From NCBI RefSeq assembly GCF_041248615.1, contig NZ_CP158426.1: 64,000 nt of DNA; one strand, 5' to 3'. Made by a program: the position numbers and the translations under genes. The first letter of the stretch is position 1, and every line of letters begins with the position of its first letter. Below, piece after piece: positions 72 to 14,229 of this stretch. The notes under the pieces are model-generated. The model was not told the origin of the DNA. It was given only the letters and a program-made list of their open reading frames with translations, and did no database searches. The stretch is from Escherichia coli. Lineage in GTDB: Bacteria; Pseudomonadota; Gammaproteobacteria; Enterobacterales; Enterobacteriaceae.

Positions 72-599
72 TCATGCCGCCCTCCTGACGCCCTGCCCGA
101 TCGCCATCAATGCCGCTTTGGATACGGTAGTAAACATCCGTCGAGGACTGATGAACGGTCGCCAAATCAGCAGCATGGAGCCTTTGCTGTTTCCCTTCTT
201 CTCCAGCCCTGTCGATGGTTCGATAAAATTAATCCGTCCATCAGTGATAATGCGAACTTCGTCGACACTCTCCAGAGCCTTGCTGAACCATCCGACTGAC
301 ATATCCTCTGGCACAAGCATAACTACCGTCTGTCGCTGTTGTATGCACTGCTCAGCGGCTTTTTCCACCCACGGCCTGATATTGCTGTACGGCGGGTTAT
401 TCCAGATTGCACCGTGGCTTACCCACTCAGAATTTAGCGCGTCGTCAGCCTCAGTTAGCCAGTGAGCGCACAGAGCATTTTTGTCGCTCGCTGCCGAATC
501 CAGCCAGAATCCAAACTCAATATCCAGTGCATCAAAAAGCCAAAGCGGCGTTTGCCAGCAGTCCTTGTCGTGTGCTGGCGTATTTGATTTGATAGTCAT
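72..599 (-). CDS. Phage DNA N-6-adenine methyltransferase (Dam-like)
   Basis: ORF track 72..659 trimmed to ATG at 599, which overlaps the ninB stop (ATGA). Protein contains NNPPYS (the N6-adenine MTase NPPY motif). Position after ninB is typical of lambdoid nin regions. Confidence 0.6.
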
Positions 600-1036
600 G
601 CAGCCCGATCTCCCCATCGCGCTTTCCATTCGAGAGCTAGTCGCGCTTCGTCTGACCACTTAACGCCACGCTCTGTACCGAATGCCTGTATAAGCTCTAA
701 TAGCTCCGCAAATTCGCTTACACGCATCCTGCTGGTTGACTGGCCTATTACCACAAAGCCATTCCCGGCAAGGTTAGGAACAACGTCCTGCTGCTTTAAT
801 GCTGCTGTAAAAACGCACTTCCAGCTTTCTGCATCCAGCCAGCGACCATGCCATTCAACCTGACGAGAGACGTCACCAAGGCAAGCCCAAAGCTTTCGAT
901 TCTGGTCTAAGCTGCGGTTGCGTTCCTGAATAGTTACTACGATTGGTTTGGTTGGGTCTGGAAGGATTTGCTGTACTGCGTGAATAGCGTTCTGCTGATG
1001 TGCTGGAGATCGAATTTCAAAGGTTAGTTTTTTCAT
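596..1036 (-). CDS. ninB: NinB recombination protein
   Basis: 146 aa from MKKLTFEIRSPAHQQNAIHAV...; matches lambda NinB as remembered. ORF track 596..1054 with the internal MKK start chosen. Confidence 0.85.
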   Translation of the reverse strand: MKKLTFEIRSPAHQQNAIHAVQQILPDPTKPIVVTIQERNRSLDQNRKLWACLGDVSRQVEWHGRWLDAESWKCVFTAALKQQDVVPNLAGNGFVVIGQSTSRMRVSEFAELLELIQAFGTERGVKWSDEARLALEWKARWGDRAA

Positions 1037-2984: not shown

Positions 2985-3060
2985 ATGACTCCTGTGGATT
3001 GATCCAGTCTTTCTACATCAGGCCTCAAAACTGTTGCAGCAGTCTTGAGGCTTTTCTTTT
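2985..3060 (+). ncRNA. Candidate oop-like antisense RNA ending in an intrinsic terminator
   Basis: On the + strand a 7 bp stem gcctcaa/ttgaggc (3022-3028 / 3045-3051) is followed by ttttctttt. It overlaps the last codons of the cII-like gene on the opposite strand, as lambda oop does. The 5' end is not determinable from sequence. Confidence 0.35.
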
Positions 3061-3296
3061 GTCAGCACCATGGCTACTTTCTTTGCTAGCTTTGCTAATT
3101 CCTCGTCTTCAACACCCCACTCCAGCACAGCCAGAAGCATGGCCATCTTTGGGATAAAGCTGTCTTTCCATCGCGAAATTTGCGATTCATTAATCCCTAA
3201 TGCATCAGCAACCTTTCGCTGACCACGTACAGCAATTCGATTCAGGATGTTGCTTGTGATTGCATTCGCTTTCTTGCGAGTACTTGTAAGTTGCAT
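3018..3296 (-). CDS. CII-like lysogeny activator (P22 C1-type)
   Basis: ORF track 3018..3383 trimmed to ATG at 3296 (MQLTSTRKKANAITSNILNRIAVRGQRKVADALGINESQISRW...). HTH protein similar to CII/C1 family as remembered. Sits between cro and O. Confidence 0.7.
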   Translation of the reverse strand: MQLTSTRKKANAITSNILNRIAVRGQRKVADALGINESQISRWKDSFIPKMAMLLAVLEWGVEDEELAKLAKKVAMVLTKEKPQDCCNSFEA

Positions 3297-3353
3297 ATGT
3301 AAGTATTTCCTTAACAAATAAGAAGTTATACGCACCAACTGATGCGCGTTGTA

Positions 3354-3398
3354 TTCCCGCATTTCGGCGGGAATAAGGACCATGACTGTTAAAGAGCA
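3354..3398 (-). promoter_or_regulatory. nutR (boxA-like and boxB hairpin) on the rightward transcript
   Basis: Reverse complement contains tgctctttaac (boxA-like) and the hairpin cccgccgaaatgcggg, the same boxB sequence as nutL. Located between cro and the cII-like gene, as in lambda. Confidence 0.5.
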
Positions 3399-3404
3399 AT
3401 TTGC

Positions 3405-3590
3405 TTATGCCGCTTTGCGATAAGCACTTTCTTGATACTTCAGGGCGCCAGCTGTAACGACTTCCAGTCGATAGGCGTCTTTCTCTGGGATGACTTCCTT
3501 CCACTGAGAAACTGCTGCATCGCTAATGCCTAACGCTTTAGCTACCGCACGCTGGGTTCCGAAGTGGTCGATAACATCTTTCTTGTACAT
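3405..3590 (-). CDS. cro: Cro repressor (P22-type)
   Basis: 61 aa MYKKDVIDHFGTQRAVAKALGISDAAVSQWKE...; matches P22 Cro as remembered. Divergent from the repressor gene. Confidence 0.8.
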   Translation of the reverse strand: MYKKDVIDHFGTQRAVAKALGISDAAVSQWKEVIPEKDAYRLEVVTAGALKYQESAYRKAA

Positions 3591-3670
3591 AGACTCGCTC
3601 CGAAATTAAAGAACACTTAAATTATCTATCAAAGGAATCTTAAGTCAAGTTTATTTAAGATGTCTTAACT
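3591..3670. promoter_or_regulatory. OR operator / PR-PRM divergent promoter region
   Basis: 80 bp AT-rich spacer between divergent cro and c2, with repeated atttaag / cttaa(a/g)t half-site-like motifs (atttaagatgtcttaact, aatcttaagtc) resembling P22-type operators. Confidence 0.5.
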
Positions 3671-4321
3671 ATGAATACACAACTGATGGGTGAGCGTATT
3701 CGCGCTCGCAGAAAAGAACTTAAGATTAGGCAGGCTGCCCTTGGCAAGATGGTTGGCGTGTCTAATGTTGCTATTTCCCAATGGGAGCGTTCTGAAACTG
3801 AGCCCAATGGCGAAAACCTATTGGCTTTAGCCAAGGCTTTACAGTGCTCCCCTGATTACTTGTTGAAAGGAGAAGATAGTCTTTCAAACATTGCCTATCA
3901 CAGCAGGCATGATCCAAGAGGTTCGTATCCTCTAATTAGTTGGGTAAGCGCAGGATGTTGGATGGAAGCTGTAGAGCCATATCATAAGCGTGCAATAGAT
4001 AACTGGTACGATACAACCGTAGATTGTTCAGAAGATTCGTTTTGGCTGGACGTAAAGGGTGATTCGATGACGGCTCCAGCCGGTCTTAGCATCCCGGAAG
4101 GGATGATAATACTAGTCGATCCTGAAGTAGAACCTCGTAATGGGAAGCTGGTAGTGGCAAAGCTCGAAGGAGAAAACGAGGCAACTTTCAAGAAGTTAGT
4201 TATTGATGCTGGCAGAAGGTTTCTAAAACCACTTAACCCACAATATCCGATGATTGAGATCAACGGGAACTGCAAAATCATCGGTGTAGTTGTCGATGCA
4301 AAAATAGCAAACCTTCCATAA
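3671..4321 (+). CDS. c2: Prophage repressor (P22 C2-like)
   Basis: 216 aa MNTQLMGERIRARRKELKIRQAALGKMVGVSNVAISQWE... with an N-terminal HTH and a C-terminal LexA-like self-cleavage domain; matches P22 C2 from memory. Confidence 0.9.
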   Translation: MNTQLMGERIRARRKELKIRQAALGKMVGVSNVAISQWERSETEPNGENLLALAKALQCSPDYLLKGEDSLSNIAYHSRHDPRGSYPLISWVSAGCWMEAVEPYHKRAIDNWYDTTVDCSEDSFWLDVKGDSMTAPAGLSIPEGMIILVDPEVEPRNGKLVVAKLEGENEATFKKLVIDAGRRFLKPLNPQYPMIEINGNCKIIGVVVDAKIANLP

Positions 4322-4343
4322 GGGGCATTCGCCCCTTTTTTTC
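4322..4343 (+). terminator. Intrinsic terminator after c2
   Basis: Hairpin ggggcattcgcccc followed by an 8-T tract immediately after the c2 stop. Confidence 0.5.
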
Positions 4344-4440
4344 TTTCCTTTAAAAATCAAAGCAAAACTTAAACTTCGCAATAAAATTTAAGTTTTCTTC
4401 AAAAACACTCTTGACCAATAATTAAAGAAATCTTAAATTT
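4344..4440. promoter_or_regulatory. OL / PL operator-promoter region (candidate)
   Basis: AT-rich region with aatttaagttttctt and aaatcttaaatttaag motifs similar to those in the OR region, upstream of nutL and N. Confidence 0.4.
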
Positions 4441-4485
4441 AAGTCATCAGCAGGACGCTGGTAGCCAAACGGAACAGATTGGCAG

Positions 4486-4526
4486 GCTCTTTAACATTGA
4501 TGGGATTGTCCCGCCGAAATGCGGGA
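4486..4526 (+). promoter_or_regulatory. nutL (boxA gctctttaac plus boxB hairpin)
   Basis: gctctttaac at 4486-4495 and hairpin tcccgc-cgaaat-gcggga at 4509-4526, upstream of N. The boxB is identical to the nutR copy. Confidence 0.5.
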
Positions 4527-4633
4527 ACCAAAGAGTAGTTGGCTTTGGGGTGACGTGAAGTGCAGCTGCACGACGGCAACCGGAAGATAAGCACCCGGCG
4601 CGTCACCGCCAAAGTCAATCATCGGAGGTCAAC

Positions 4634-4933
4634 ATGGCAGTAGTCATTACATATCTGGCTGACGATAACGCCAGAAATCGCCGCAGAGCACGCAGACAGG
4701 CTCAACGTGAACAGGCAATGCAAGAACAGCGACTGGCGCGAAAGATTGCGCTAAAGCTCTCTGGTTGCGTCAGAGCAGATAAAGCAGCATCACTCGGAAG
4801 CCTTCGCTGCAAGAAGGCAGAAGAGGTCGAGAGTAAACGGAATCGTATTTACTACCGCAAGCCACGCAGTGAAATGGGTGTGACTTGTGTTGGTCGCCAG
4901 AAAATGAAATTAGGCAGTAAGCCACTTATTTGA
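4634..4933 (+). CDS. N: N-type transcription antiterminator (phage-21-like)
   Basis: 99 aa with an arginine-rich N-terminal motif (NARNRRRARRQAQREQ) and C-terminus GRQKMKLGSKPLI resembling lambda/phage 21 N. Located downstream of nutL. Confidence 0.75.
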   Translation: MAVVITYLADDNARNRRRARRQAQREQAMQEQRLARKIALKLSGCVRADKAASLGSLRCKKAEEVESKRNRIYYRKPRSEMGVTCVGRQKMKLGSKPLI

Positions 4934-4944
4934 GAGGAATTAAT

Positions 4945-5568
4945 ATGTCATCAATCCGCTTAACTACGAGAATGAAAGAGGAAATCGCTCGTAACGCTTT
5001 AATTAAGTCTGGGGTTTTCACTGAACTTGAAGAAGTAACAAAGTTAAAGAACCAGCTTGCACTTGACGCCAGAGTTATTGCGTTTGGCGGTAAAAAGAAA
5101 ACTGAGGAAGTGGATCAGTTATCATCCAAGTTGGTAGCTATAAGTGAAGAACTTGAAAAGATGGGATGTTCATTTTACTCATACGATGTTCGTTCTACTT
5201 CAATTTATCTGACTGTATCTGGCAGAAGGGTTGGATGGCTTTCATATGGGAAAGACGGCAACGGCGAAGATATATTGCTCCCTGCTCCGAACAAAGATAA
5301 ATGCATGTTTAGCGCAGAACACGAAATAACAAAAAGGTTTGATGAAATCTGCGCATTGCAACAAAAACTTGAAGCCAAGAAAAAGGATATCGAATCAAAT
5401 GTATGGGCTGCTTTGAACTCAGTCACAACAGTTAAGCGACTTATTGAAGTTTGGCCTGAAAGCAAAGAGTTGCTACCAAAAGAAGCAGATAAAGCAAGTA
5501 CAGCACTTCCTGCTTTACGGGTAGAAGATTTGAATAAGATGATTGGACTTCCTTCCGAGGCCGCATAG
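4945..5568 (+). CDS. Hypothetical protein (207 aa), no family recognised
   Basis: ORF track 4930..5568 trimmed to ATG 4945 preceded by gaggaa. Occupies the ral/sieB position between N and cIII. Confidence 0.5.
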   Translation: MSSIRLTTRMKEEIARNALIKSGVFTELEEVTKLKNQLALDARVIAFGGKKKTEEVDQLSSKLVAISEELEKMGCSFYSYDVRSTSIYLTVSGRRVGWLSYGKDGNGEDILLPAPNKDKCMFSAEHEITKRFDEICALQQKLEAKKKDIESNVWAALNSVTTVKRLIEVWPESKELLPKEADKASTALPALRVEDLNKMIGLPSEAA

Positions 5569-5605
5569 TCGGCCTTTATTTTTGGCATAAACAACAGAGG
5601 TGAAT

Positions 5606-5740
5606 ATGAACGCAGTTGAATTTGCAAAATGGATGGCAGAGCAAGATATCACAGGAGCCGACGAAAAGGCTGTGTACTACATGGCTCTGCTATGGATTCA
5701 CAAAGCAAAAGAGGCTGCAAATGCTCTTGGAGGTGAGTGA
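5606..5740 (+). CDS. Hypothetical small protein (44 aa)
   Basis: ATG at 5606 preceded by agagg; the stop overlaps the next start (TGATG). Not in the ORF track because it is under 60 aa. Confidence 0.3.
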   Translation: MNAVEFAKWMAEQDITGADEKAVYYMALLWIHKAKEAANALGGE

Positions 5741-5925
5741 TGTGCGAGTTTTATGAAGCAGATATCAAACGCCCAGAAATGGCAAGTGATGCGACATTAC
5801 GTGATTACTTCGCAGCAAAGTTCATGCAGGGAGTTTGTGCAAATCCAGACAGGCTTTATGACAACGAACCACTTGCTAAAGAAGCTTATGCGATGGCAGA
5901 CGCAATGCTCAAAGCTCGCGAATAA
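5740..5925 (+). CDS. Hypothetical small protein (61 aa)
   Basis: ORF track 5737..5925, with ATG at 5740 translationally coupled to the upstream small ORF. Confidence 0.4.
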   Translation: MCEFYEADIKRPEMASDATLRDYFAAKFMQGVCANPDRLYDNEPLAKEAYAMADAMLKARE

Positions 5926-6059
5926 GCACTGTGTATTCATTCCAACGAGTGAATACACGGAGCAATGTCGCTCGTAACTAAACAGGAGCCGACTTGTTCT
6001 GATTATTTGAAATCTTCTTTGCCCTCCGATGTGAGGGCAATTTTTTTGATGGAGGATAT

Positions 6060-7025
6060 ATGAGTGAAGTAACAGATTTAGTTGTTATTGAAAAAGCAAA
6101 TGCAATGACTGTATTTCAGTCTGCCGACCAGATTGAAGAAATCCTTCAAAAGGTTGAACGTGAAGTTATGTCCTTTGTGCCTGATATCACAACGGCAAAG
6201 GGCAGAAAGGAGATCGCTTCTCTGGCGTATAAAGTTGCGCAGACGAAAACATATCTCGATGGTCTTGGCAAAGACCTTGTTGCTGAACTGAAGGAAATTC
6301 CAAAGCTAATTGATGCCAACCGCAAGACAGTGCGTGATCGCCTTGATGAGCTGAAAGCCAAGGCACGCCAGCCTCTTACTGATTATGAGGAAGAACAGGC
6401 GCGGATTAAAGCCGAAGAGGAAGCTAAGGCAGCAGCTGAAGCCCTCGCAAAGCAAATTGAGTCTGACCATGAAATAGCGATTTTGATGGATCGCGAATTT
6501 GACCGCAAAAGAGAAGAGGCAAGACTCAAAGTGGAGCAGGAAAAGCGAGAGCATGAAGAACTCTTAAAAAGAGAAGCTGAAGAGAAAGCCAGAGCAGAAG
6601 CCGAAGCAAAGGCAAAAGCCGAAATTGAAGCAGCAGCAAGGCGAGAAGCAGAAGCTAAGGCAGCAGCGGAACGTGCAGAGCGTGAACGCATTGAAGCCGA
6701 GCAACGAGCACAGCGCGAAGCAAAAGAGGCAGCAGAACGAGCTGAAAGAGAAAAGCAGGCAGCAATTGAAGCAGAACGCCGAAAAGCACAGGAGGAGGCT
6801 GAACGAATCCGTCGCGATGCTGAAGCAAAAGAGCAAGCCAGAATAGCAGAAGAAAAAAGAATCAAGGAAGAAGAGCGTAGAGCAAAGGATAAAGCTCACC
6901 GGAAAGAAGTAAATAACAAAATACTTGCTGACCTTATCAAGGTTGGCGCATCAGAAGATGTTGCTAAAAATATCATAACAGCCATCGTAAAAGGCGAAGT
7001 ATTCGCAACAAAAATAACCTACTAA
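6060..7025 (+). CDS. Coiled-coil protein (321 aa) with a long Ala/Glu/Lys/Arg-rich low-complexity core
   Basis: ORF track. N-terminal approx 100 aa are of ordinary composition, followed by an approx 170 aa AEAKA/EAERR-type repeat and a short C-terminal domain. Antisense ORFs in the track here are repeat artefacts. Confidence 0.55.
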   Translation: MSEVTDLVVIEKANAMTVFQSADQIEEILQKVEREVMSFVPDITTAKGRKEIASLAYKVAQTKTYLDGLGKDLVAELKEIPKLIDANRKTVRDRLDELKAKARQPLTDYEEEQARIKAEEEAKAAAEALAKQIESDHEIAILMDREFDRKREEARLKVEQEKREHEELLKREAEEKARAEAEAKAKAEIEAAARREAEAKAAAERAERERIEAEQRAQREAKEAAERAEREKQAAIEAERRKAQEEAERIRRDAEAKEQARIAEEKRIKEEERRAKDKAHRKEVNNKILADLIKVGASEDVAKNIITAIVKGEVFATKITY

Positions 7026-7049
7026 TAAAACCAACATAAGGAACCACCC

Positions 7050-7196
7050 ATGATTTACGCAATCGCGGGAGGCGCTCGCATGGGTGCCTTCCAACTAAAT
7101 GAATCTTTACTTGAACGAATCACCCGTAAATTACGTGACGGATGGAAACGCCTTATCGACATACTTAATCAGCCAGGAGTCCCCAAAAATGGATAA
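7050..7196 (+). CDS. cIII: CIII-like FtsH inhibitor
   Basis: 48 aa MIYAIAGGARMGAFQLNESLLERITRKLRDGWKRLIDILNQPGVPKNG; the central ESLLERITRKLRDGWKRLIDILNQPGVPKNG matches lambda CIII as remembered. RBS aaggaacc. Not in the ORF track. Confidence 0.7.
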   Translation: MIYAIAGGARMGAFQLNESLLERITRKLRDGWKRLIDILNQPGVPKNG

Positions 7197-7302
7197 AACA
7201 CTTATGGCTATCCAGACTAAATTCACTATCGCCGCTTTTATTGGCGATGAAAAGATGTTTCGTGAGGCCGTCGAAGCCTACAGAAAATGGAGGTCAAAAT
7301 GA
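7189..7302 (+). CDS. kil: Kil-like host-killing / division inhibitor protein
   Basis: 37 aa MDKTLMAIQTKFTIAAFIGDEKMFREAVEAYRKW..., resembling lambda Kil from memory. Overlaps the cIII end. The longer track ORF 7099..7302 overlaps cIII in another frame. Confidence 0.6.
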   Translation: MDKTLMAIQTKFTIAAFIGDEKMFREAVEAYRKWRSK

Positions 7303-7487
7303 TTCCGGTAGAACTGGCGAAAACTCCAGAGTTAAGTCGATTAAAAAGAGAATATCACATTGCTGAGGCTCGTTACTGGCGTAAAGCGGGAGATAAATCA
7401 AAGAAACAACTTTGCTTATGGCAGGCACAAAGAGAGCGCATGAATGAGCGTGAGTTTCTTTCCTCCCCATCCGAATTACCATTCTGA
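7299..7487 (+). CDS. Hypothetical small protein (62 aa)
   Basis: ATG at 7299 overlaps the kil stop; ORF track 7287..7487. Confidence 0.4.
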   Translation: MIPVELAKTPELSRLKREYHIAEARYWRKAGDKSKKQLCLWQAQRERMNEREFLSSPSELPF

Positions 7488-7495
7488 GGCAAATT

Positions 7496-8176
7496 ATGGG
7501 AACTGCGACATTAATACTCGGTGAATCTGGCACCGGAAAATCAACCAGCATGAGAAATATCAATCCAGAGGAAGCAATACTTATAAAACCAATAGGCAAG
7601 CCGCTTCCATTTAAATCAAAAGACTGGCTGGCATGGGATGCCAGAGCAAAAAAAGGAACCGTAGTTACCACTGACAAATGGGACGTAATAGTTGCCGTAA
7701 TTAAGCGTGCTCACGAATACGGGAAAAGAATCGTTATTGTTGATGACTTCCAGTATGTGATGAGCAATGAGTTTATGCGCCGCTCAGAAGAAAAATCGTT
7801 TGATAAATTCACTGAGATAGGCCGCCACGCATGGGAGGTGATTAAGGCTGCACAGGATGCACCTGATGACCTGAGAGTCTATTTTCTTGCGCACACCGAA
7901 GAAACCCCTATGGGGCGTGTGAAAATGAAGACTATCGGCAAAATGCTGGACGAGAAAATCACTGTCGAAGGCATGTTTACTATAGTTCTTCGCACCCTTA
8001 CCCGCGATGACCAGTTCTTTTTCACCACGAAAAACAACGGTGCAGACACTGTTAAATCCCCAATGGGAATGTTTGATTCTAATGAGATTGATAACGATCT
8101 CTCTTTCGTCGATGCCACTGTTTGTGATTACTACGGCATCAATAATGTTCATCAAATTAAGGAAAACGCCGCATGA
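7496..8176 (+). CDS. Sak4-type RecA-fold ATPase (putative phage single-strand annealing / recombination protein)
   Basis: 226 aa with Walker A GESGTGKST near the N-terminus and a Walker B-like IVIVDDF. Its size and its pairing with an SSB-like gene fit the Sak4 family. Confidence 0.65.
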   Translation: MGTATLILGESGTGKSTSMRNINPEEAILIKPIGKPLPFKSKDWLAWDARAKKGTVVTTDKWDVIVAVIKRAHEYGKRIVIVDDFQYVMSNEFMRRSEEKSFDKFTEIGRHAWEVIKAAQDAPDDLRVYFLAHTEETPMGRVKMKTIGKMLDEKITVEGMFTIVLRTLTRDDQFFFTTKNNGADTVKSPMGMFDSNEIDNDLSFVDATVCDYYGINNVHQIKENAA

Positions 8177-8760
8177 GCAACGTGATTTTTACTTATAACG
8201 AAGAAGCAGCACTGACCGCAGGGCAAGGTGGTTTTATTAACGAAACTGGTGCTCATATCATTACCATTACTGAAGCAGAACTAAAGCAATCAGAAAAAGG
8301 AGCCAAATTTATTGAGTTTTCTGGCGAATCTGACGACGGACGTAAAATCCAATATCTTAGCGTCTGTGTTCAGAAAAATGACGGAACGGAAAACAAATTT
8401 GGCGCAAATGTCGTTCACGCCATGATGGGGTGTGCCGGGATTGGACAATTAACGCAACATATGGTTTCCGCCAGTAAATTTGTTGCTCCTGAGTTTCATG
8501 GAAAGAAAATCGGGTTAGTGCTCCAGAAAGTATTAACCACAAACAAAAAGACTGGCGCAGACAGCTACCAGATGGAAATACGCATCCCGTTTATTGCACA
8601 AACAGGTCAAACCCTTAAAGAAAAGGCGGAAGGCAAGCAACCAGAAACTATCGCCAACATGGTTGCCAGCCTCAAAGATAAAGACAATCGCTCTAAAAAC
8701 GTAAGCCAGAATCATGCAGATGATTATGGTTACAGCCAGAACGATTACCCTCCATTCTAG
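8173..8760 (+). CDS. Phage SSB-like protein (DUF2815-type partner of Sak4)
   Basis: 195 aa; start overlaps the Sak4 stop. C-terminal acidic/aromatic tail ...DDYGYSQNDYPPF resembles the SSB C-terminal tail. Confidence 0.5.
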   Translation: MSNVIFTYNEEAALTAGQGGFINETGAHIITITEAELKQSEKGAKFIEFSGESDDGRKIQYLSVCVQKNDGTENKFGANVVHAMMGCAGIGQLTQHMVSASKFVAPEFHGKKIGLVLQKVLTTNKKTGADSYQMEIRIPFIAQTGQTLKEKAEGKQPETIANMVASLKDKDNRSKNVSQNHADDYGYSQNDYPPF

Positions 8761-8785
8761 ATTATTGCAAAATAAGGATTCCATT

Positions 8786-9082
8786 ATGCCAGCGCCTCTG
8801 TATGGTGCGGATGACCCGCGCAATTGCTCCGGTAGCTCCAAGGCGGAGGTGCTGGAAAATATCAAAAACAATTTCGACGCGTTTCTTGCTCTGACACCAG
8901 AAACAAAAGCAGAACGGATGTACCGACGCGATATACAACTCGCGCTAAAACAGGAGAAGGACCGAACAAACGAAACAGCAATGAGACCGTTGCGAAAAGC
9001 GACAATAGACAAATTCCCTGAATATATCGACCCGCGCCTGCGTAATTACCGCTCACGCTATGGCGCTATCAGTAATGACTGA
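8786..9082 (+). CDS. Hypothetical protein (98 aa)
   Basis: ORF track 8714..9082 trimmed to ATG 8786 with RBS aaggatt. Confidence 0.45.
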
Positions 9083-9092
9083 GGAATTTACA

Positions 9093-9260
9093 ATGAGAGG
9101 ACTTGCATACAATCCCGGCATTCTTCCGGCAGAAATGATTATTCGCCAACGCGTAAAGCCAATGCCATCGAGAGAGGAATTGCTTAAGAGAAATTCTTTT
9201 CCGTCAGTAAATCAAAACAAATATCTGAATGCGATGTGGCGCAAAGGAGGCAAGCAGTGA
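9093..9260 (+). CDS. Hypothetical small protein (55 aa)
   Basis: ATG 9093 preceded by gagga; within track ORF 9060..9260. Confidence 0.35.
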
Positions 9261-9556
9261 GTGTATATCTTATTGATAAACGTCGACGTGGGCAACAAAT
9301 ACCACCTGTAGGAATTCCGAATCACACATGGTTTTGCGTACTTGATATCGATGGTATGGATGCGTTGGTTGACACTCGTCATTACTGCGATACCGCAACA
9401 GCTACTCCGGCGAAAGCAAAGAAAATGGCTGCTCTGATAGAAAACTGGACTCCACCTGATGGTTGGTGCAATGGGAATGATCGAGATTGGCATGAAAAAA
9501 TGAAGGGCTATATCTGCGATTTCTTACGTAAATGCAACGGCTTCAGGGTGATGTGA
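9257..9556 (+). CDS. Hypothetical protein (99 aa; GTG start assumed)
   Basis: Track ORF 9236..9556. aggagg at 9245-9250 favours GTG 9257 as the start, overlapping the upstream stop. Start is uncertain. Confidence 0.4.
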
Positions 9557-9557
9557 C

Positions 9558-10175
9558 ATGAACAAGATTGACTATCAGGCACTGCGTGAAGCGGCAGAGC
9601 AGGCAATGCATGACGACTGGGGATTTGACGCAGACCTTTTCCATGAATTGGTAACACCATCGATTGTGCTGGAACTGCTGGATGAACGGGAAAGAAACCA
9701 GCAATACATCAAACGCCGCGACCAGGAGAACGAGGATATTGCGCTAACGGTAGGGAGGCTTCGCGTTGAGCTGGAAGGCAAAGACAGCAAAATAGCCAAT
9801 CTTACCGCCGAACGCGATGCTCTTCGTGAAGGTGAGATGGGCGACGCTAGGCATAGCAACACACGGGCCGCAGCTGATATCTACTTCCAACTGGTCGAGG
9901 AGTGCGAAATTCCTGCTGGCGGATCTCTGGTCGAGTACGTTGACGATATGCGCGAGAAGCTGGAAGCTGCAGAGAAGCGCATTGCAGAGTTAGAAAGTGG
10001 TTCTCAGGCACAAAAGTTAGTTGAAGCAATCATTGTTGCGATAGAAAACGAACAGGAAAGGCTTTTTGATGAAGATTACCTAATGGATTCGAAAGAATGC
10101 ATTGACGTAATTCGTGAAGAAGTAAAGCGATGGAATGATTCCCGTGCCGCTGGCATTCGCATCAAAGGAGAGTGA
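9558..10175 (+). CDS. Hypothetical coiled-coil protein (205 aa), possibly Ea22-like
   Basis: ORF track. Acidic, coiled-coil-rich. Lies in the ea/b2-equivalent region between the recombination module and xis. Family assignment is by recollection only. Confidence 0.4.
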   Translation: MNKIDYQALREAAEQAMHDDWGFDADLFHELVTPSIVLELLDERERNQQYIKRRDQENEDIALTVGRLRVELEGKDSKIANLTAERDALREGEMGDARHSNTRAAADIYFQLVEECEIPAGGSLVEYVDDMREKLEAAEKRIAELESGSQAQKLVEAIIVAIENEQERLFDEDYLMDSKECIDVIREEVKRWNDSRAAGIRIKGE

Positions 10176-10176
10176 T

Positions 10177-10719
10177 ATGACCACTATAACCGATAAGAAA
10201 CAGTATCCCAGCGAGCAATATCTTAATGAGCTGATCACCAACATAGAGTTTGCTGCAAGGGCACCAGTTGAAGTCGTGAGAGCGATGGCAGCAGAGCTAC
10301 AGAAGCGGCGCGAAGCTGATAGTGCAGAACCTGCAAGTAATCATGAAGAGTTGCCGCTTGATTATCTCCAAGGTCAAAAAGATGGTCTTGAATGGGCTGC
10401 GCAGCTTGCAGAAGCAAATCACCCACAAACTGGCGACTGGCTTTACGATGACCCGCTGGAGCTGGCTAAAGCTATCAGAAAAGGTCCTGACATGCCCGAA
10501 TTCGATGGACCAACTCCGGTAACTCCGGATGGTTGGATAAGCTGTAGTGAGCGAATGCCCGCTCAAGATGATTGGATTTTAATTTATTCAAAGCACGGCG
10601 AGTATATGGCAGGACAGGTACAAGGGGAATACGTGGAGTTGAGCGACGGCACTTTATCGTGGTTAGGGAACGCCTTGTACTGGATGCCTCTACCGGAACC
10701 GCCGCAGGAGGTGAAGTGA
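10177..10719 (+). CDS. Hypothetical protein (180 aa), C-terminal DUF551-like domain
   Basis: Track ORF 10135..10719 trimmed to ATG 10177 with RBS aaaggagag. C-terminal W/Y-rich segment (GWISCSERMP...DDWILIY...WMPLPEPP) resembles DUF551. Confidence 0.45.
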   Translation: MTTITDKKQYPSEQYLNELITNIEFAARAPVEVVRAMAAELQKRREADSAEPASNHEELPLDYLQGQKDGLEWAAQLAEANHPQTGDWLYDDPLELAKAIRKGPDMPEFDGPTPVTPDGWISCSERMPAQDDWILIYSKHGEYMAGQVQGEYVELSDGTLSWLGNALYWMPLPEPPQEVK

Positions 10720-10997
10720 TGGACTCCTTCGCGAAATATACGATTATTGACTGGATAGCCTTCCTTCAGGTTTTACTCATCTGGTTTTATATGGCTTACA
10801 GGAGTGGACAGTGGATTGTCAGTATAGCCTGTAGCAAGGGATGGCGTTGGTGGAACCGAAAGAATAAAAAAGCACTGGCATTGGATTCGTTTTACGAAGC
10901 ATTCAATCTTAACAGCCTTCAGCCTGGTTCTGTCGTTGTAGTCACCACTCAAAGCGGCATGACGATACAAATTCACAAGCCAAAGGATGAAAAATGA
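10719..10997 (+). CDS. Hypothetical small membrane protein (92 aa)
   Basis: ATG 10719 overlaps the upstream stop, RBS ggagg. One hydrophobic segment (IIDWIAFLQVLLIWFYMAY). Confidence 0.4.
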   Translation: MDSFAKYTIIDWIAFLQVLLIWFYMAYRSGQWIVSIACSKGWRWWNRKNKKALALDSFYEAFNLNSLQPGSVVVVTTQSGMTIQIHKPKDEK

Positions 10998-11083
10998 TGT
11001 GGCCTATATGCGTTAATTGCGGACGGATGTGCCTATCTGGATGGTGCCGAAAGTGCGACAAATGCACGAAGAAAAGACAATAA
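10994..11083 (+). CDS. Cys-rich micro-ORF (29 aa, CxxC-x3-C-x4-CxxCxxC)
   Basis: MMWPICVNCGRMCLSGWCRKCDKCTKKRQ; start overlaps the upstream stop. Very short, so it may not be translated. Confidence 0.25.
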   Translation: MMWPICVNCGRMCLSGWCRKCDKCTKKRQ

Positions 11084-11142
11084 CAATCCTCGCACTCGCG
11101 GGGATTTCTTTTATCTGAACTCGCTACGGCGGGTTTTGTTTT

Positions 11143-11454
11143 ATGGAGATGATTATGGCCTGTTCAACATTCACCACTTTAACGTTACAGAAATACCAGC
11201 CAGACCCTGAAGATTTATACTCACTGTGTGGCGGAAATCATGGTAAAGCCGCCATGATCGAATGTAAGGACAAAATCCACATATGCCTTAATTGCGTTGA
11301 TGTCCTCGTTGATATCAAAAATGAAAGAGAAGATAAAAAGCGTAGCGAGGCTATTCGCGCCTTAGATTCATGGATGCGAGATGGGTATAGTGCTGCGCAA
11401 ATTTATGACTTAGCCATTTCAAAAGGCGAAATACCAGGAGTGCGCATCGAATAA
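11143..11454 (+). CDS. Hypothetical protein (103 aa)
   Basis: ORF track; followed by an intrinsic terminator. Confidence 0.4.
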   Translation: MEMIMACSTFTTLTLQKYQPDPEDLYSLCGGNHGKAAMIECKDKIHICLNCVDVLVDIKNEREDKKRSEAIRALDSWMRDGYSAAQIYDLAISKGEIPGVRIE

Positions 11455-11544: not shown

Positions 11545-11763
11545 ATGTACTTGACACTTCAGGAGTGGAATGCACGCCAGCGACGCCCAAGAAGCCTTGA
11601 AACAGTTCGTCGATGGGTGCGCGAATGCAGGATATTCCCTCCTCCGGTTAAGGATGGAAGAGAATATCTGTTCCACGAATCAGCGGTAAAGGTTGACTTA
11701 AATCGACCAGTAACAGGTAGCCTTTTGAAGAGGATCAGAAATGGGAAGAAGGCGAAGTCATGA
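11545..11763 (+). CDS. xis: Excisionase Xis
   Basis: 72 aa MYLTLQEWNARQRRPRSLETVRRWVRECRIFPPPVKDGREYLFHESAVKVDL...; matches lambda Xis from memory. Overlaps the int start. Confidence 0.9.
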   Translation: MYLTLQEWNARQRRPRSLETVRRWVRECRIFPPPVKDGREYLFHESAVKVDLNRPVTGSLLKRIRNGKKAKS

Positions 11764-12811
11764 GCGCCGGGATTTACCCCCTAACCTTTATATAAGAAAC
11801 AATGGATATTACTGCTACAGGGACCCAAGGACGGGTAAAGAGTTTGGATTAGGCAGAGACAGGCGAATCGCAATCACTGAAGCCATACAGGCCAACATTG
11901 AGTTATTTTCAGGACACAAACACAAGCCTCTGACAGCGAGAATCAACAGTGATAATTCCGTTACGCTACATTCATGGCTTGATCGCTACGAAAAAATCCT
12001 GGCCAGCAGAGGAATCAAGCAGAAGACACTCATAAATTACATGAGCAAAATTAAAGCAATAAGGAGGGGGCTGCCTGATGCTCCACTTGAAGACATCACC
12101 ACAAAAGAAATTGCGGCAATGCTCAATGGATACATAGACGAGGGCAAGGCGGCGTCAGCCAAGTTAATCAGATCAACACTGAGCGATGCATTCCGAGAGG
12201 CAATAGCTGAAGGCCATATAACAACAAACCCTGTCGCTGCCACTCGCGCAGCAAAATCAGAGGTAAGGAGATCAAGACTTACGGCTGACGAATACCTGAA
12301 AATTTATCAAGCAGCAGAATCATCACCATGTTGGCTCAGACTTGCAATGGAACTGGCTGTTGTTACCGGGCAACGAGTTGGTGATTTATGCGAAATGAAG
12401 TGGTCTGATATCGTAGATGGATATCTTTATGTCGAGCAAAGCAAAACAGGCGTAAAAATTGCCATCCCAACAACATTGCATGTTGATGCTCTCGGGATAT
12501 CAATGAAGGAAACACTTGATAAATGCAAAGAGATTCTTGGCGGAGAAACCATAATTGCATCTACTCGTCGTGAACCGCTTTCATCCGGCACAGTATCAAG
12601 GTATTTTATGCGCGCACGAAAAGCATCAGGTCTTTCCTTCGAAGGGGATCCGCCTACCTTTCACGAGTTGCGCAGTTTGTCTGCAAGACTCTATGAGAAG
12701 CAGATAAGCGATAAGTTTGCTCAACATCTTCTCGGGCATAAGTCGGACACCATGGCATCACAGTATCGTGATGACAGAGGCAGGGAGTGGGACAAAATTG
12801 AAATCAAATAA
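11741..12811 (+). CDS. int: Tyrosine integrase Int (lambda-type)
   Basis: 356 aa MGRRRSHERRDLPPNLYIRNNGYYCYRDPRTGKEFGLGRD...; essentially lambda Int from memory. The adjacent P' arm and core follow. Confidence 0.95.
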   Translation: MGRRRSHERRDLPPNLYIRNNGYYCYRDPRTGKEFGLGRDRRIAITEAIQANIELFSGHKHKPLTARINSDNSVTLHSWLDRYEKILASRGIKQKTLINYMSKIKAIRRGLPDAPLEDITTKEIAAMLNGYIDEGKAASAKLIRSTLSDAFREAIAEGHITTNPVAATRAAKSEVRRSRLTADEYLKIYQAAESSPCWLRLAMELAVVTGQRVGDLCEMKWSDIVDGYLYVEQSKTGVKIAIPTTLHVDALGISMKETLDKCKEILGGETIIASTRREPLSSGTVSRYFMRARKASGLSFEGDPPTFHELRSLSARLYEKQISDKFAQHLLGHKSDTMASQYRDDRGREWDKIEIK

Positions 12812-12945: not shown

Positions 12946-14229
12946 GTGAACACATTTTCAGTTTCCCGTCTGGCGCTGGCATTGGCTTTTGGCGTGACGC
13001 TGACCGCCTGTAGCTCAACACCGCCCGATCAACGTCCTTCTGATCAAACCGCGCCTGGTACCTCTTCTCGCCCGATTCTGTCGGCAAAAGAAGCGCAGAA
13101 TTTCGATGCTCAACACTATTTTGCATCCCTGACACCAGGTGCGGCAGCGTGGAATCCTTCCCCGATTACCCTGCCTGCACAACCTGACTTTGTTGTCGGC
13201 CCGGCGGGTACTCAAGGTGTAACGCATACCACGATTCAGGCGGCGGTAGATGCGGCAATTATCAAGCGTACCAACAAGCGCCAGTATATTGCCGTGATGC
13301 CTGGTGAGTATCAGGGAACGGTGTATGTCCCTGCCGCTCCGGGTGGAATTACTCTGTACGGTACAGGTGAAAAACCGATTGATGTGAAGATTGGGCTTTC
13401 CCTTGATGGGGGCATGAGCCCCGCCGACTGGCGTCACGACGTCAACCCGCGCGGCAAATATATGCCAGGTAAACCAGCGTGGTATATGTACGATAGCTGC
13501 CAGAGCAAACGCAGCGACAGTATCGGCGTTCTCTGCTCTGCGGTCTTCTGGTCACAAAACAATGGCCTGCAACTGCAAAACCTGACCATCGAAAACACGC
13601 TGGGCGATAGCGTAGATGCGGGTAACCATCCGGCGGTGGCACTGCGTACTGATGGCGACAAAGTGCAGATCAATAACGTCAACATTCTCGGTCGTCAGAA
13701 TACCTTCTTTGTCACCAACAGTGGTGTGCAAAACCGTCTGGAAACCAACCGTCAGCCGCGTACTCTGGTGACCAACAGTTACATTGAAGGGGATGTGGAT
13801 ATCGTTTCTGGTCGCGGCGCAGTGGTGTTCGATAACACCGAATTCCGCGTGGTGAACTCCCGTACCCAGCAAGAAGCGTATGTGTTTGCACCGGCTACGC
13901 TGTCCAACATTTACTACGGTTTCCTCGCCGTAAACAGCCGTTTCAATGCTTCCGGTGATGGCGTGGCGCAACTGGGCCGCTCGCTGGATGTTGATGCCAA
14001 TACCAACGGTCAGGTGGTGATCCGTGATAGTGCCATCAACGAAGGTTTTAACACAGCCAAACCGTGGGCTGATGCGGTGATCTCTAATCGTCCGTTTGCG
14101 GGTAACACCGGCAGCGTTGATGATAACGACGAAGTACAGCGCAATCTGAATGACACTAACTACAACCGCATGTGGGAATACAATAACCGCGGCGTGGGTA
14201 GCAAAGTGGTTGCAGAGGCGAAGAAGTAA
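12946..14229 (+). CDS. ybhC: Putative pectinesterase-family lipoprotein YbhC
   Basis: 427 aa, GTG start, lipoprotein signal (LTACSS). Gene adjacent to att-lambda in K-12 order. Confidence 0.85.
   Translation: MNTFSVSRLALALAFGVTLTACSSTPPDQRPSDQTAPGTSSRPILSAKEAQNFDAQHYFASLTPGAAAWNPSPITLPAQPDFVVGPAGTQGVTHTTIQAAVDAAIIKRTNKRQYIAVMPGEYQGTVYVPAAPGGITLYGTGEKPIDVKIGLSLDGGMSPADWRHDVNPRGKYMPGKPAWYMYDSCQSKRSDSIGVLCSAVFWSQNNGLQLQNLTIENTLGDSVDAGNHPAVALRTDGDKVQINNVNILGRQNTFFVTNSGVQNRLETNRQPRTLVTNSYIEGDVDIVSGRGAVVFDNTEFRVVNSRTQQEAYVFAPATLSNIYYGFLAVNSRFNASGDGVAQLGRSLDVDANTNGQVVIRDSAINEGFNTAKPWADAVISNRPFAGNTGSVDDNDEVQRNLNDTNYNRMWEYNNRGVGSKVVAEAKK

Follow-up and report, generated by a model that had tools for sequence, protein, structure and literature searches.

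A mosaic stretch of the pL operon in an Escherichia coli lambdoid prophage, with an Nmad5-family gene, a small-gene pair and a probable recombination-module accessory of the Agt/Mog family

Results

Genes between N and cIII

We analyzed a 64,000-nucleotide stretch of Escherichia coli DNA from contig NZ_CP158426.1 (hereafter, the window), which contains the early region of a lambdoid prophage. The subject here is the group of four genes located at positions 4945-7025, between the antiterminator gene N and cIII. These genes are on the + strand, which is the same strand as that of N and cIII, and are as follows:

4634-4933, + strand: N-type antiterminator, 99 aa (phrog_271, E=8.3e-36)
4945-5568, + strand: Nmad5-family gene, 207 aa, 11 nt past N (Pfam PF18757, phrog_1965)
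5606-5740, + strand: orf44, 44 aa (phrog_24660, E=7.5e-34); Shine-Dalgarno (SD) sequence AGAGGTGA
5740-5925, + strand: orf61, 61 aa, matching the C-terminal part of phrog_2201 (E=5e-15)
6060-7025, + strand: Agt/Mog-family coiled-coil gene, 321 aa (phrog_1376; RefSeq name 'TolA')

Each of the four open reading frames (ORFs) was preceded by an SD-like sequence, and all matched PHROG families with E values ranging from 5e-15 to 1.6e-113, indicating that they are genes and not chance ORFs. PGAP calls the same four coding sequences in E. coli NRZ14408 (NZ_LT599825.1; 99.8% identity to the window). Thus, coordinates, strand, SD sequences and PGAP calls all agree with the four ORFs that a preceding interpretation, made from the DNA letters without database searches (the sequence-only reading), had placed in this interval. 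The GC content was 0.40 for the Nmad5 gene, 0.45-0.46 for the other three genes and cIII, and 0.50 for N, all of which are within the range of the operon. Membrane segments were found in none of the four proteins. A search of NCBIfam with the same proteins gave nothing meaningful, nor did PADLOC, where one weak match (E=0.0052) was obtained. Homology to ral, sieB, ea10, 17, orf78 and orf87 of lambda and P22, a check that had been proposed together with the sequence-only reading, was found for none of them.

The 321 aa protein belongs to the Agt/Mog family

BLASTP analysis showed that the 321 aa protein is 50% identical, end to end, to gp39 (322 aa) of phage phi80 (E=6e-62). In the phi80 record, the note on gp39 reads "agt: anti-toxin for Gam; Mog (modifier of Gam)", and that on its neighbour gamL reads "toxic without Mog"; the annotation of phage HF4s likewise records that its copy resembles phi80 gp39. 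A literature search for 'modifier of Gam', or for TolA together with recombination, found nothing relevant. P22 gene 17 was tried as an Agt homologue and was ruled out, as its product is only 103 aa.

In RefSeq, JGI, many phage records and Pharokka-type annotations, such proteins are named 'cell envelope biogenesis protein TolA'. This name is explained by the middle region: residues 111-285 are 79% A/E/K/R, which bears out the long A/E/K/R stretch described in the sequence-only reading, and this composition resembles that of TolA domain II. These annotations and the helical A/E/K/R-rich middle would make the protein a TolA-like component of the cell envelope. However, no hydrophobic anchor was found in it (the maximum Kyte-Doolittle 19-residue mean was 1.03), and no Pfam domain was detected in the protein at E<=10 or in 39 homologues, so that there is no link to TolA, DUF1351 or KfrA. 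The gene is, furthermore, linked to recombination genes, as described below. A TolA-like function is, therefore, hardly credible.

A search with the N-terminal 150 residues returned 5,052 cluster representatives (50% identity clusters) at E<=0.001, and the full protein showed a weak PHROG match to an 'exonuclease' family (E=0.004). An alignment of 40 members revealed a three-part architecture comprising a conserved N-terminal region (residues 1-150), a coil of variable length and a conserved C-terminal segment of ~45 residues. The residues R49, K63, G70, K78, R103 and E110 in the N-terminal region were invariant. Many copies from E. coli and Salmonella (P0170-P0185) are 245 aa long and match 36% of the query at 98-100% identity. 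From lengths of 245-333 aa, we suspect that the length of the coil varies through loss or gain of sequence in the A/E/K/R region.

An AlphaFold2 (AF2) model of the 321 aa protein (pLDDT 85, pTM 0.37) comprised helices at residues 22-38, 46-175 and 183-294, a low-confidence break at 178-184 and a small C-terminal element. If the two long helices were to fold back as an antiparallel hairpin, the conserved ends would be brought together. Conservation along residues 46-115 showed alpha-helical periodicity, with a peak at 100 degrees per residue (z=4.1) that was reached in none of 5000 shuffles, and the conserved helical face carries nine conserved Lys/Arg. The protein would thus fit a long coiled coil whose conserved basic face could bind DNA or an acidic partner. 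No solved structure was matched when the PDB was searched by sequence and by profile with the Agt and Nmad5 families.

Agt-like genes are linked to phage recombination genes

Downstream of the 321 aa gene, the window contains cIII, kil and a recombination module:

7050-7196, + strand: cIII (PGAP; phrog_550/phrog_2461 for cIII and kil)
7189-7302, or from 7099, + strand: kil, between the Agt-like gene and the recombination genes
7287-7487, + strand: small protein in the position of P22 Arf (phrog_1723)
7496-8176, + strand: Sak4 (phrog_2872)
8173-8760, + strand: DUF669-type single-stranded DNA-binding protein (SSB) (phrog_743)
8786-9082, + strand: Abc2, anti-RecBCD (phrog_656)

The module (7287-9082) is of the Sak4 type and is without an exonuclease gene. 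Gam or GamL was not found in the window, and Abc2 is not adjacent to the 321 aa gene. As for kil, PGAP starts the gene at ATG 7189 (37 aa, overlapping the end of cIII), and an alternative start is located at 7099 (67 aa); residues 2-66 of the longer ORF match PHROG kil profiles.

We then surveyed the surroundings of Agt-like genes in 177 IMG/VR loci obtained with three queries. Their ORFs were scored by phmmer against recombination proteins of annotated phages, with an annealing-protein gene at <=3.5 kb from the Agt-like gene as the criterion for linkage, and 174 loci were scored. Such a gene was present in 166 of these 174 loci; the annealing proteins belonged to four unrelated families and were encoded on either side of the Agt-like gene. 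The three sets were as follows:

E. coli set: 77/79; Rad52 32, ERF 32, RecT/Bet 10, Sak4 3
Pseudomonas set: 78/78; ERF 37, RecT/Bet 41; median gap 8 bp
Diverse metagenomic set: 11/17, or 15/17 with exonucleases; recombinase upstream in 7 and downstream in 4

The two E. coli loci without such a gene appear, from the architecture listing, to end just past the Agt gene. Outside the E. coli set, the Agt-like gene often directly abuts the recombinase gene. Contigs encoding distant homologues were too short to give neighbourhood information. The same arrangement was observed in ten annotated phages of different genera (phi80, Klebsiella ST101-KPC2phi6.1, D3, LC3I3, Seahorse, Eta, phi5013-M1, phiPSA1, PhiPLPE and Shewanella 1/41), where the Agt-like gene is beside, or at most two genes from, an annealing-protein or exonuclease gene. 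Gene orders in these phages include Agt-GamL-RecT-Exo, Agt-Erf-Exo, Agt-Bet-Exo-SSB, Agt-Sak4-SSB-Exo and RecE-Bet-Agt, as well as a Sak4-like ATPase followed by a hypothetical protein and Agt.

Near-identical Agt alleles occur with the four unrelated recombinase families, which disfavours a contact specific to one recombinase; the pairing with all four instead favours a shared substrate or partner. Given this conserved linkage, we propose that the Agt/Mog family is probably an accessory of phage recombination modules that has not been recognised as such. In a 2025 survey covering 325 lambdoid phages, the module components described are annealing proteins, nucleases, SSBs, RecBCD inhibitors and several doubtful extras, and the Agt family goes unmentioned (PMC12315714). 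In Firmicutes phages, genes for DUF1351, DUF2483, Sipho_gp157 or Mu Gam-like proteins are located just upstream of erf, sak4 or recT, and analogous functions have been proposed for them (PMC8093625). In Proteobacteria phages, the positional counterpart of those genes is the Agt family.

The wording of the phi80 record on agt/Mog and gamL points to another role, in which the 321 aa protein would be an antitoxin or modifier that binds and buffers a RecBCD inhibitor and does not itself act in recombination. The same order of an Agt-like gene followed by GamL is found in a Klebsiella phage, and seeds for Gam, GamL and Abc2 gave a match in 60 of the 79 E. coli loci, where Abc2 or Gam is encoded downstream. 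The conserved basic helical face could also bind an acidic partner, and lambda Gam is an acidic DNA mimic. However, the same seeds matched in 0/78 Pseudomonas and 0/17 metagenomic loci, although the seed set was small and unrecognised inhibitors may be among the loci scored negative; these 95 loci, with no recognisable inhibitor, nevertheless keep Agt against a recombinase or exonuclease gene. Near-identical Agt alleles, moreover, occur both with and without Abc2. Acting as an 'antitoxin for Gam' is therefore hardly a general role of the family, and we consider this explanation unlikely for the 321 aa protein.

In two RecT-type E. coli loci (L031:7344-7655 and L040:7344-7655), a 103 aa acidic protein of phrog_3486 is encoded directly upstream of RecT. 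This is the site expected for Gam or GamL, and the protein may be a candidate RecBCD inhibitor.

The 207 aa protein is a full-length member of the Nmad5 family

The sequence-only reading had assigned the 207 aa protein to no recognisable family. This was incorrect: residues 4-203 matched the Pfam model Nmad5 (PF18757) over positions 1-206 of 206 with E=1.7e-71, the same domain was present in 71/71 homologues, and the NCBI name of the protein is "Nmad5 family putative nucleotide modification protein". An AF2 model built with 26 homologues as input (pLDDT 85) showed three long helices and an inserted beta-hairpin, as well as short helices towards the C-terminus and a tail of low confidence (residues 183-207). 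Despite the low model confidence, the tail is highly conserved (LPAL.V.DLNK.IGLP). A Foldseek search of AFDB50 with this model gave 33 matches at E<=0.001, with TM-scores <=0.90; 31 of them were Nmad5 or nucleotide-modification-associated proteins and two were uncharacterised. No enzyme-like fold was indicated by this search.

Nmad5 genes occur in diverse contexts in other phages. In M6/SN1-like Pseudomonas phages, the gene sits inside a thymidine-hypermodification cassette; in an N4-like Salmonella phage, it has ThyX on one side and a PD-(D/E)XK-type exonuclease on the other; and in a Vibrio phage, it is two genes from a TGT/DpdA-like gene and near replication protein O. In Dhillonvirus, a longer protein is encoded alone among head genes. 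The hypermodification cassette and the TGT/DpdA-like neighbour, together with the full-length family match, would be consistent with participation of the 207 aa protein in chemical modification of phage DNA bases. The name Nmad5, however, reflects genomic context elsewhere and not a function demonstrated in this prophage, and we regard base modification here as very unlikely.

The homologue of SECphi18, a Dhillonvirus, aligned to residues 103-203 of the window protein with 33% identity over 101 aa. Both proteins contain the C-terminal motif T.KRLIE.WPE ... LPAL.V.DLNK.IGLP. In Dhillonvirus, one Lys-to-Glu change in nmad5 results in escape from the Tmn defence, whereas deletion of nmad5 leaves Tmn sensitivity intact; the gene was uncloneable and apparently toxic (PMC11846954). 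The escape substitution is probably in or beside the conserved C-terminal motif.

Nmad5 was present in 9 of the 80 related loci described in the next section, in most of them directly after N. Three N types are found upstream of it, and Sak4, ERF or Rad52 recombinase modules downstream. The spacing of ~11 nt between N and Nmad5 is kept in the window and in loci L045, L058, L065 and L082, across three N types, and two loci have hybrid N genes with an N_peptide-type N-terminus and an N36-type C-terminus. The spacing and the hybrid genes suggest that N and Nmad5 sequences were brought together by recombination at a junction within the 3' end of N.

A variable slot separates the Nmad5 gene from the Agt leader

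The stop codon of orf44 and the start codon of orf61 overlap in ATGA. We therefore take the two ORFs to be translationally coupled, as the sequence-only reading had proposed. Neither ORF product matched Pfam, NCBIfam or PADLOC, including any toxin or antitoxin family. The orf61 product has a conserved signature, TLRDYFAA...ADAMLKAR, and 801 homologues, none of which is named. Its relatives are usually coupled to an upstream partner, which is either orf44 or the unrelated Y8K6. The possibility that Y8K6 and orf61 are a split form of the longer phrog_2201 protein was ruled out, as Y8K6 is in a different PHROG; likewise, orf44 and orf61 as counterparts of P22 orf78 and orf87 were ruled out, as they gave no alignment. 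A natural in-frame orf44-orf61 fusion (P0343, 99 aa) is encoded on a Logan contig, and this single metagenomic sequence hints that the two proteins might act together.

We next compared this part of the operon in 80 related E. coli-type loci from IMG/VR. As observed, the slot between N and Agt is either empty or filled with combinations of Ral, Y8K6 (PF27050), orf69/61, orf44 and a 107 aa protein. Other fillers are DUF2528, which we presume to be lambda Ea10-like, a PHROG 3054 protein and Nmad5. Agt alleles of at least 96% identity sit behind ~10 different upstream gene sets. In the window, the variable slot is thus located between Nmad5 and the Agt leader, with orf44 and orf61 as one of ~10 alternative fillers.

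The exact gene set of the window occurred in 0/80 related loci. Among 5,426 complete E. coli genomes, 2,287 matched part of 4600-7100, and only 10 covered at least 80% of it. Hundreds of sequenced lambdoid phages, and ~40% of complete E. coli genomes, carry parts of the block with 95-99% identity. The interval is, therefore, three independently assorting cassettes and not one system, in contrast to the single four-gene block that the sequence-only reading had described. That reading had also called the interval between N and cIII a turnover hotspot, which applies to the slot fillers in the 80 loci but not to the 321 aa gene, a conserved partner of recombination modules.

Regulatory features and the timing of expression

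The following features were found around and within the block:

4411-4439, + strand: pL-like promoter (TTGACC, 17 nt spacer, TAAATT)
5557-5576, + strand: terminator-like hairpin and T-run, overlapping the Nmad5 stop codon
5919-6059, + strand: conserved non-coding leader of the 321 aa gene, 140 bp
5926-5963, + strand: inverted repeat with 17-nt arms, in the leader of the 321 aa gene
6019-6040, + strand: terminator-like hairpin, then T7, in the leader of the 321 aa gene

The two terminator-like hairpins flank the orf44-orf61 pair. About 320 phage records that match no other part of the query carry this leader at 95-98% identity. These records include 933W, H-19B and many Stx phages, in which the region is unannotated. 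An Rfam scan of window positions 3000-8000 detected no RNA family at E<=1.

Apart from pL, no sigma-70-like site was found in 4300-7400 by a simple consensus scan, which could miss weak or non-sigma-70 promoters. As pL is the sole promoter-like site and hairpins are located inside the block, N-dependent expression is expected, that is, during lytic growth or induction; expression of the block genes in the lysogen is not expected. Such lytic expression fits recombination or takeover functions. As a moron, a self-contained unit of promoter, gene and terminator that is active in the lysogen, the block would need a promoter of its own, and none was found within the range of that scan.

These data bear on the proposal that the whole block, or a part of it with at least Nmad5 and the two small ORFs, is expressed early from pL and has a role in anti-defence, exclusion or host takeover that has not been described before. 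In lambda and P22, the same slot holds Ral, SieB and gene 17, and Ral is also found in the related loci. Nmad5 is first after N, which would give very early expression, and the Dhillonvirus data (escape from Tmn by substitution and apparent toxicity on cloning) point in the same direction (PMC11846954). However, the four proteins have no meaningful match in PADLOC, NCBIfam or among solved structures, and the 321 aa gene is instead associated with genes for recombination. The Dhillonvirus deletion, which keeps Tmn sensitivity, further indicates that nmad5 is not a simple anti-Tmn factor (PMC11846954). Superinfection exclusion, in particular, is disfavoured because it needs expression in the lysogen: with the hairpins, expression is expected to depend on N, no internal promoter-like site was found and, unlike SieB, the proteins lack transmembrane (TM) segments. 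Taken together, we regard the proposal as a whole as rather doubtful. Nmad5 and the small ORFs might still act against host defence or in host takeover, for which no direct support was found.

Setting of the prophage

The remaining features of the prophage are as follows:

Early region, - strand: ninB, P, O, cII and cro
3671-4321, + strand: cI
Downstream of Abc2, + strand: further early-left ORFs, xis, then int (11741-12811)

Between the lambda-type integrase gene and an ORF at 12946-14229, there are ~130 bp, and no tRNA gene is located at the junction. From its sequence, we take this ORF to be the host lipoprotein gene ybhC; the prophage is, therefore, apparently inserted at lambda attB. In the nin region, an ORF at 72-659 (- strand) overlaps the end of ninB and encodes NPPY, a motif typical of DNA N6-adenine methyltransferases; the Nmad5 gene lies far from this ORF.

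Discussion

A mosaic pL stretch with a member of the recombination module

We consider it fairly likely that positions 4945-7025 are a mosaic, N-antiterminated stretch of the pL operon, comprising an Nmad5 cassette, a small-ORF pair and an Agt/Mog gene that is a member of the recombination module, with molecular functions that we infer. In this scheme, Nmad5 would be an early factor acting on DNA metabolism or on a host DNA-processing complex, and the Agt/Mog gene would be the promoter-proximal member of the module. Its product may bind DNA or an acidic partner at recombination intermediates, thereby assisting or tempering the annealing-protein, exonuclease and anti-RecBCD functions. More tentatively, Agt/Mog could constitute a fifth functional class in recombination modules, in addition to annealing proteins, exonucleases, SSBs and RecBCD inhibitors, whose members would be coiled-coil proteins; their basic helical face would bind DNA ends or recombination intermediates, and they would work with the Rad52, ERF, RecT and Sak4 types.

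Several points weigh against this interpretation. The link between the 321 aa protein and recombination is drawn from gene neighbourhood and one database annotation. In the window itself, cIII and kil separate the 321 aa gene from Sak4. Within lambdoid phages, the order of the operon is itself conserved, which accounts for part of the adjacency, and there is phylogenetic redundancy among the loci. The AF2 model of the 321 aa protein, with its low-confidence break and pTM, is compatible with a rod as well as with an antiparallel hairpin, and a Foldseek search of AFDB50 with it gave no matches. The consensus promoter scan could have overlooked a weak or non-sigma-70 promoter in the block. As for Nmad5, no nucleotide- or DNA-modification enzyme was detected among the pL-operon ORFs searched against PHROG (7050-11454); with no such partner in the searched part of the operon, the role of Nmad5 here is only a guess.

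As a genomic object, the block is ordinary, since every gene belongs to a catalogued family. The description of the four genes as uncharacterised consequently holds for function, as the families are unstudied, but not for family, as all are catalogued and the phi80 homologue Agt/Mog has a name. Two labels have been corrected, as the 207 aa protein had been described as having no family and the 321 aa protein as 'TolA'. The main lead is the Agt family, which is very large, is without a Pfam model or a solved structure, and is tightly linked to modules for single-strand annealing recombination across Proteobacteria phages. Should Agt prove to modulate recombination or to buffer RecBCD inhibitors, it could become relevant to recombineering tools, and this could also bear on the mosaic evolution of phages and on the sensing of recombination proteins by defence systems. 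Furthermore, Nmad5 after N, combined with the Dhillonvirus Tmn data (PMC11846954), offers a tractable lambdoid model for a family of uncharacterised biochemistry.

Comparison with known systems

The likeness of the 321 aa protein to TolA is confined to the A/E/K/R-rich helix composition, as both the anchor and the C-terminal TolA domain are absent from it. The interval occupies the same slot, from an N-type antiterminator to cIII/c3, as ral, sieB and ea10 in lambda and as ral, orf78, orf87, 17, sieB and esc in P22. P22 SieB, however, is a membrane protein with its own promoter, whereas the window proteins are without a TM segment.

The Nmad5 genes of M6/SN1 and Dhillonvirus belong to the same Pfam family as the window gene. 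Their contexts differ: a hypermodification cassette in M6, head genes in Dhillonvirus and the position directly after N in the window.

Compared with Agt/Mog of phi80 (Lula), the 321 aa protein shares the three-part architecture, and its gene likewise precedes the recombination genes in the pL operon. In phi80, agt abuts gamL-recT-exo, whereas in the window cIII, kil and a small ORF are located in between. The recombinase in the window is Sak4 with a DUF669-type SSB, and the inhibitor is Abc2, starting 1.76 kb downstream. For the function of phi80 Agt, we rely on the database note.

The Firmicutes genes for DUF1351, DUF2483, Sipho_gp157 and Mu Gam-like proteins occupy the same position, by annealing-protein modules of several families. 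This likeness is positional only, and 0/40 Agt family members match DUF1351 or another Pfam family. In Lc-Nu, a Mu Gam-like gene is located upstream of Sak4 and SSB, which is the same position as that of the Agt/Mog gene in the window.

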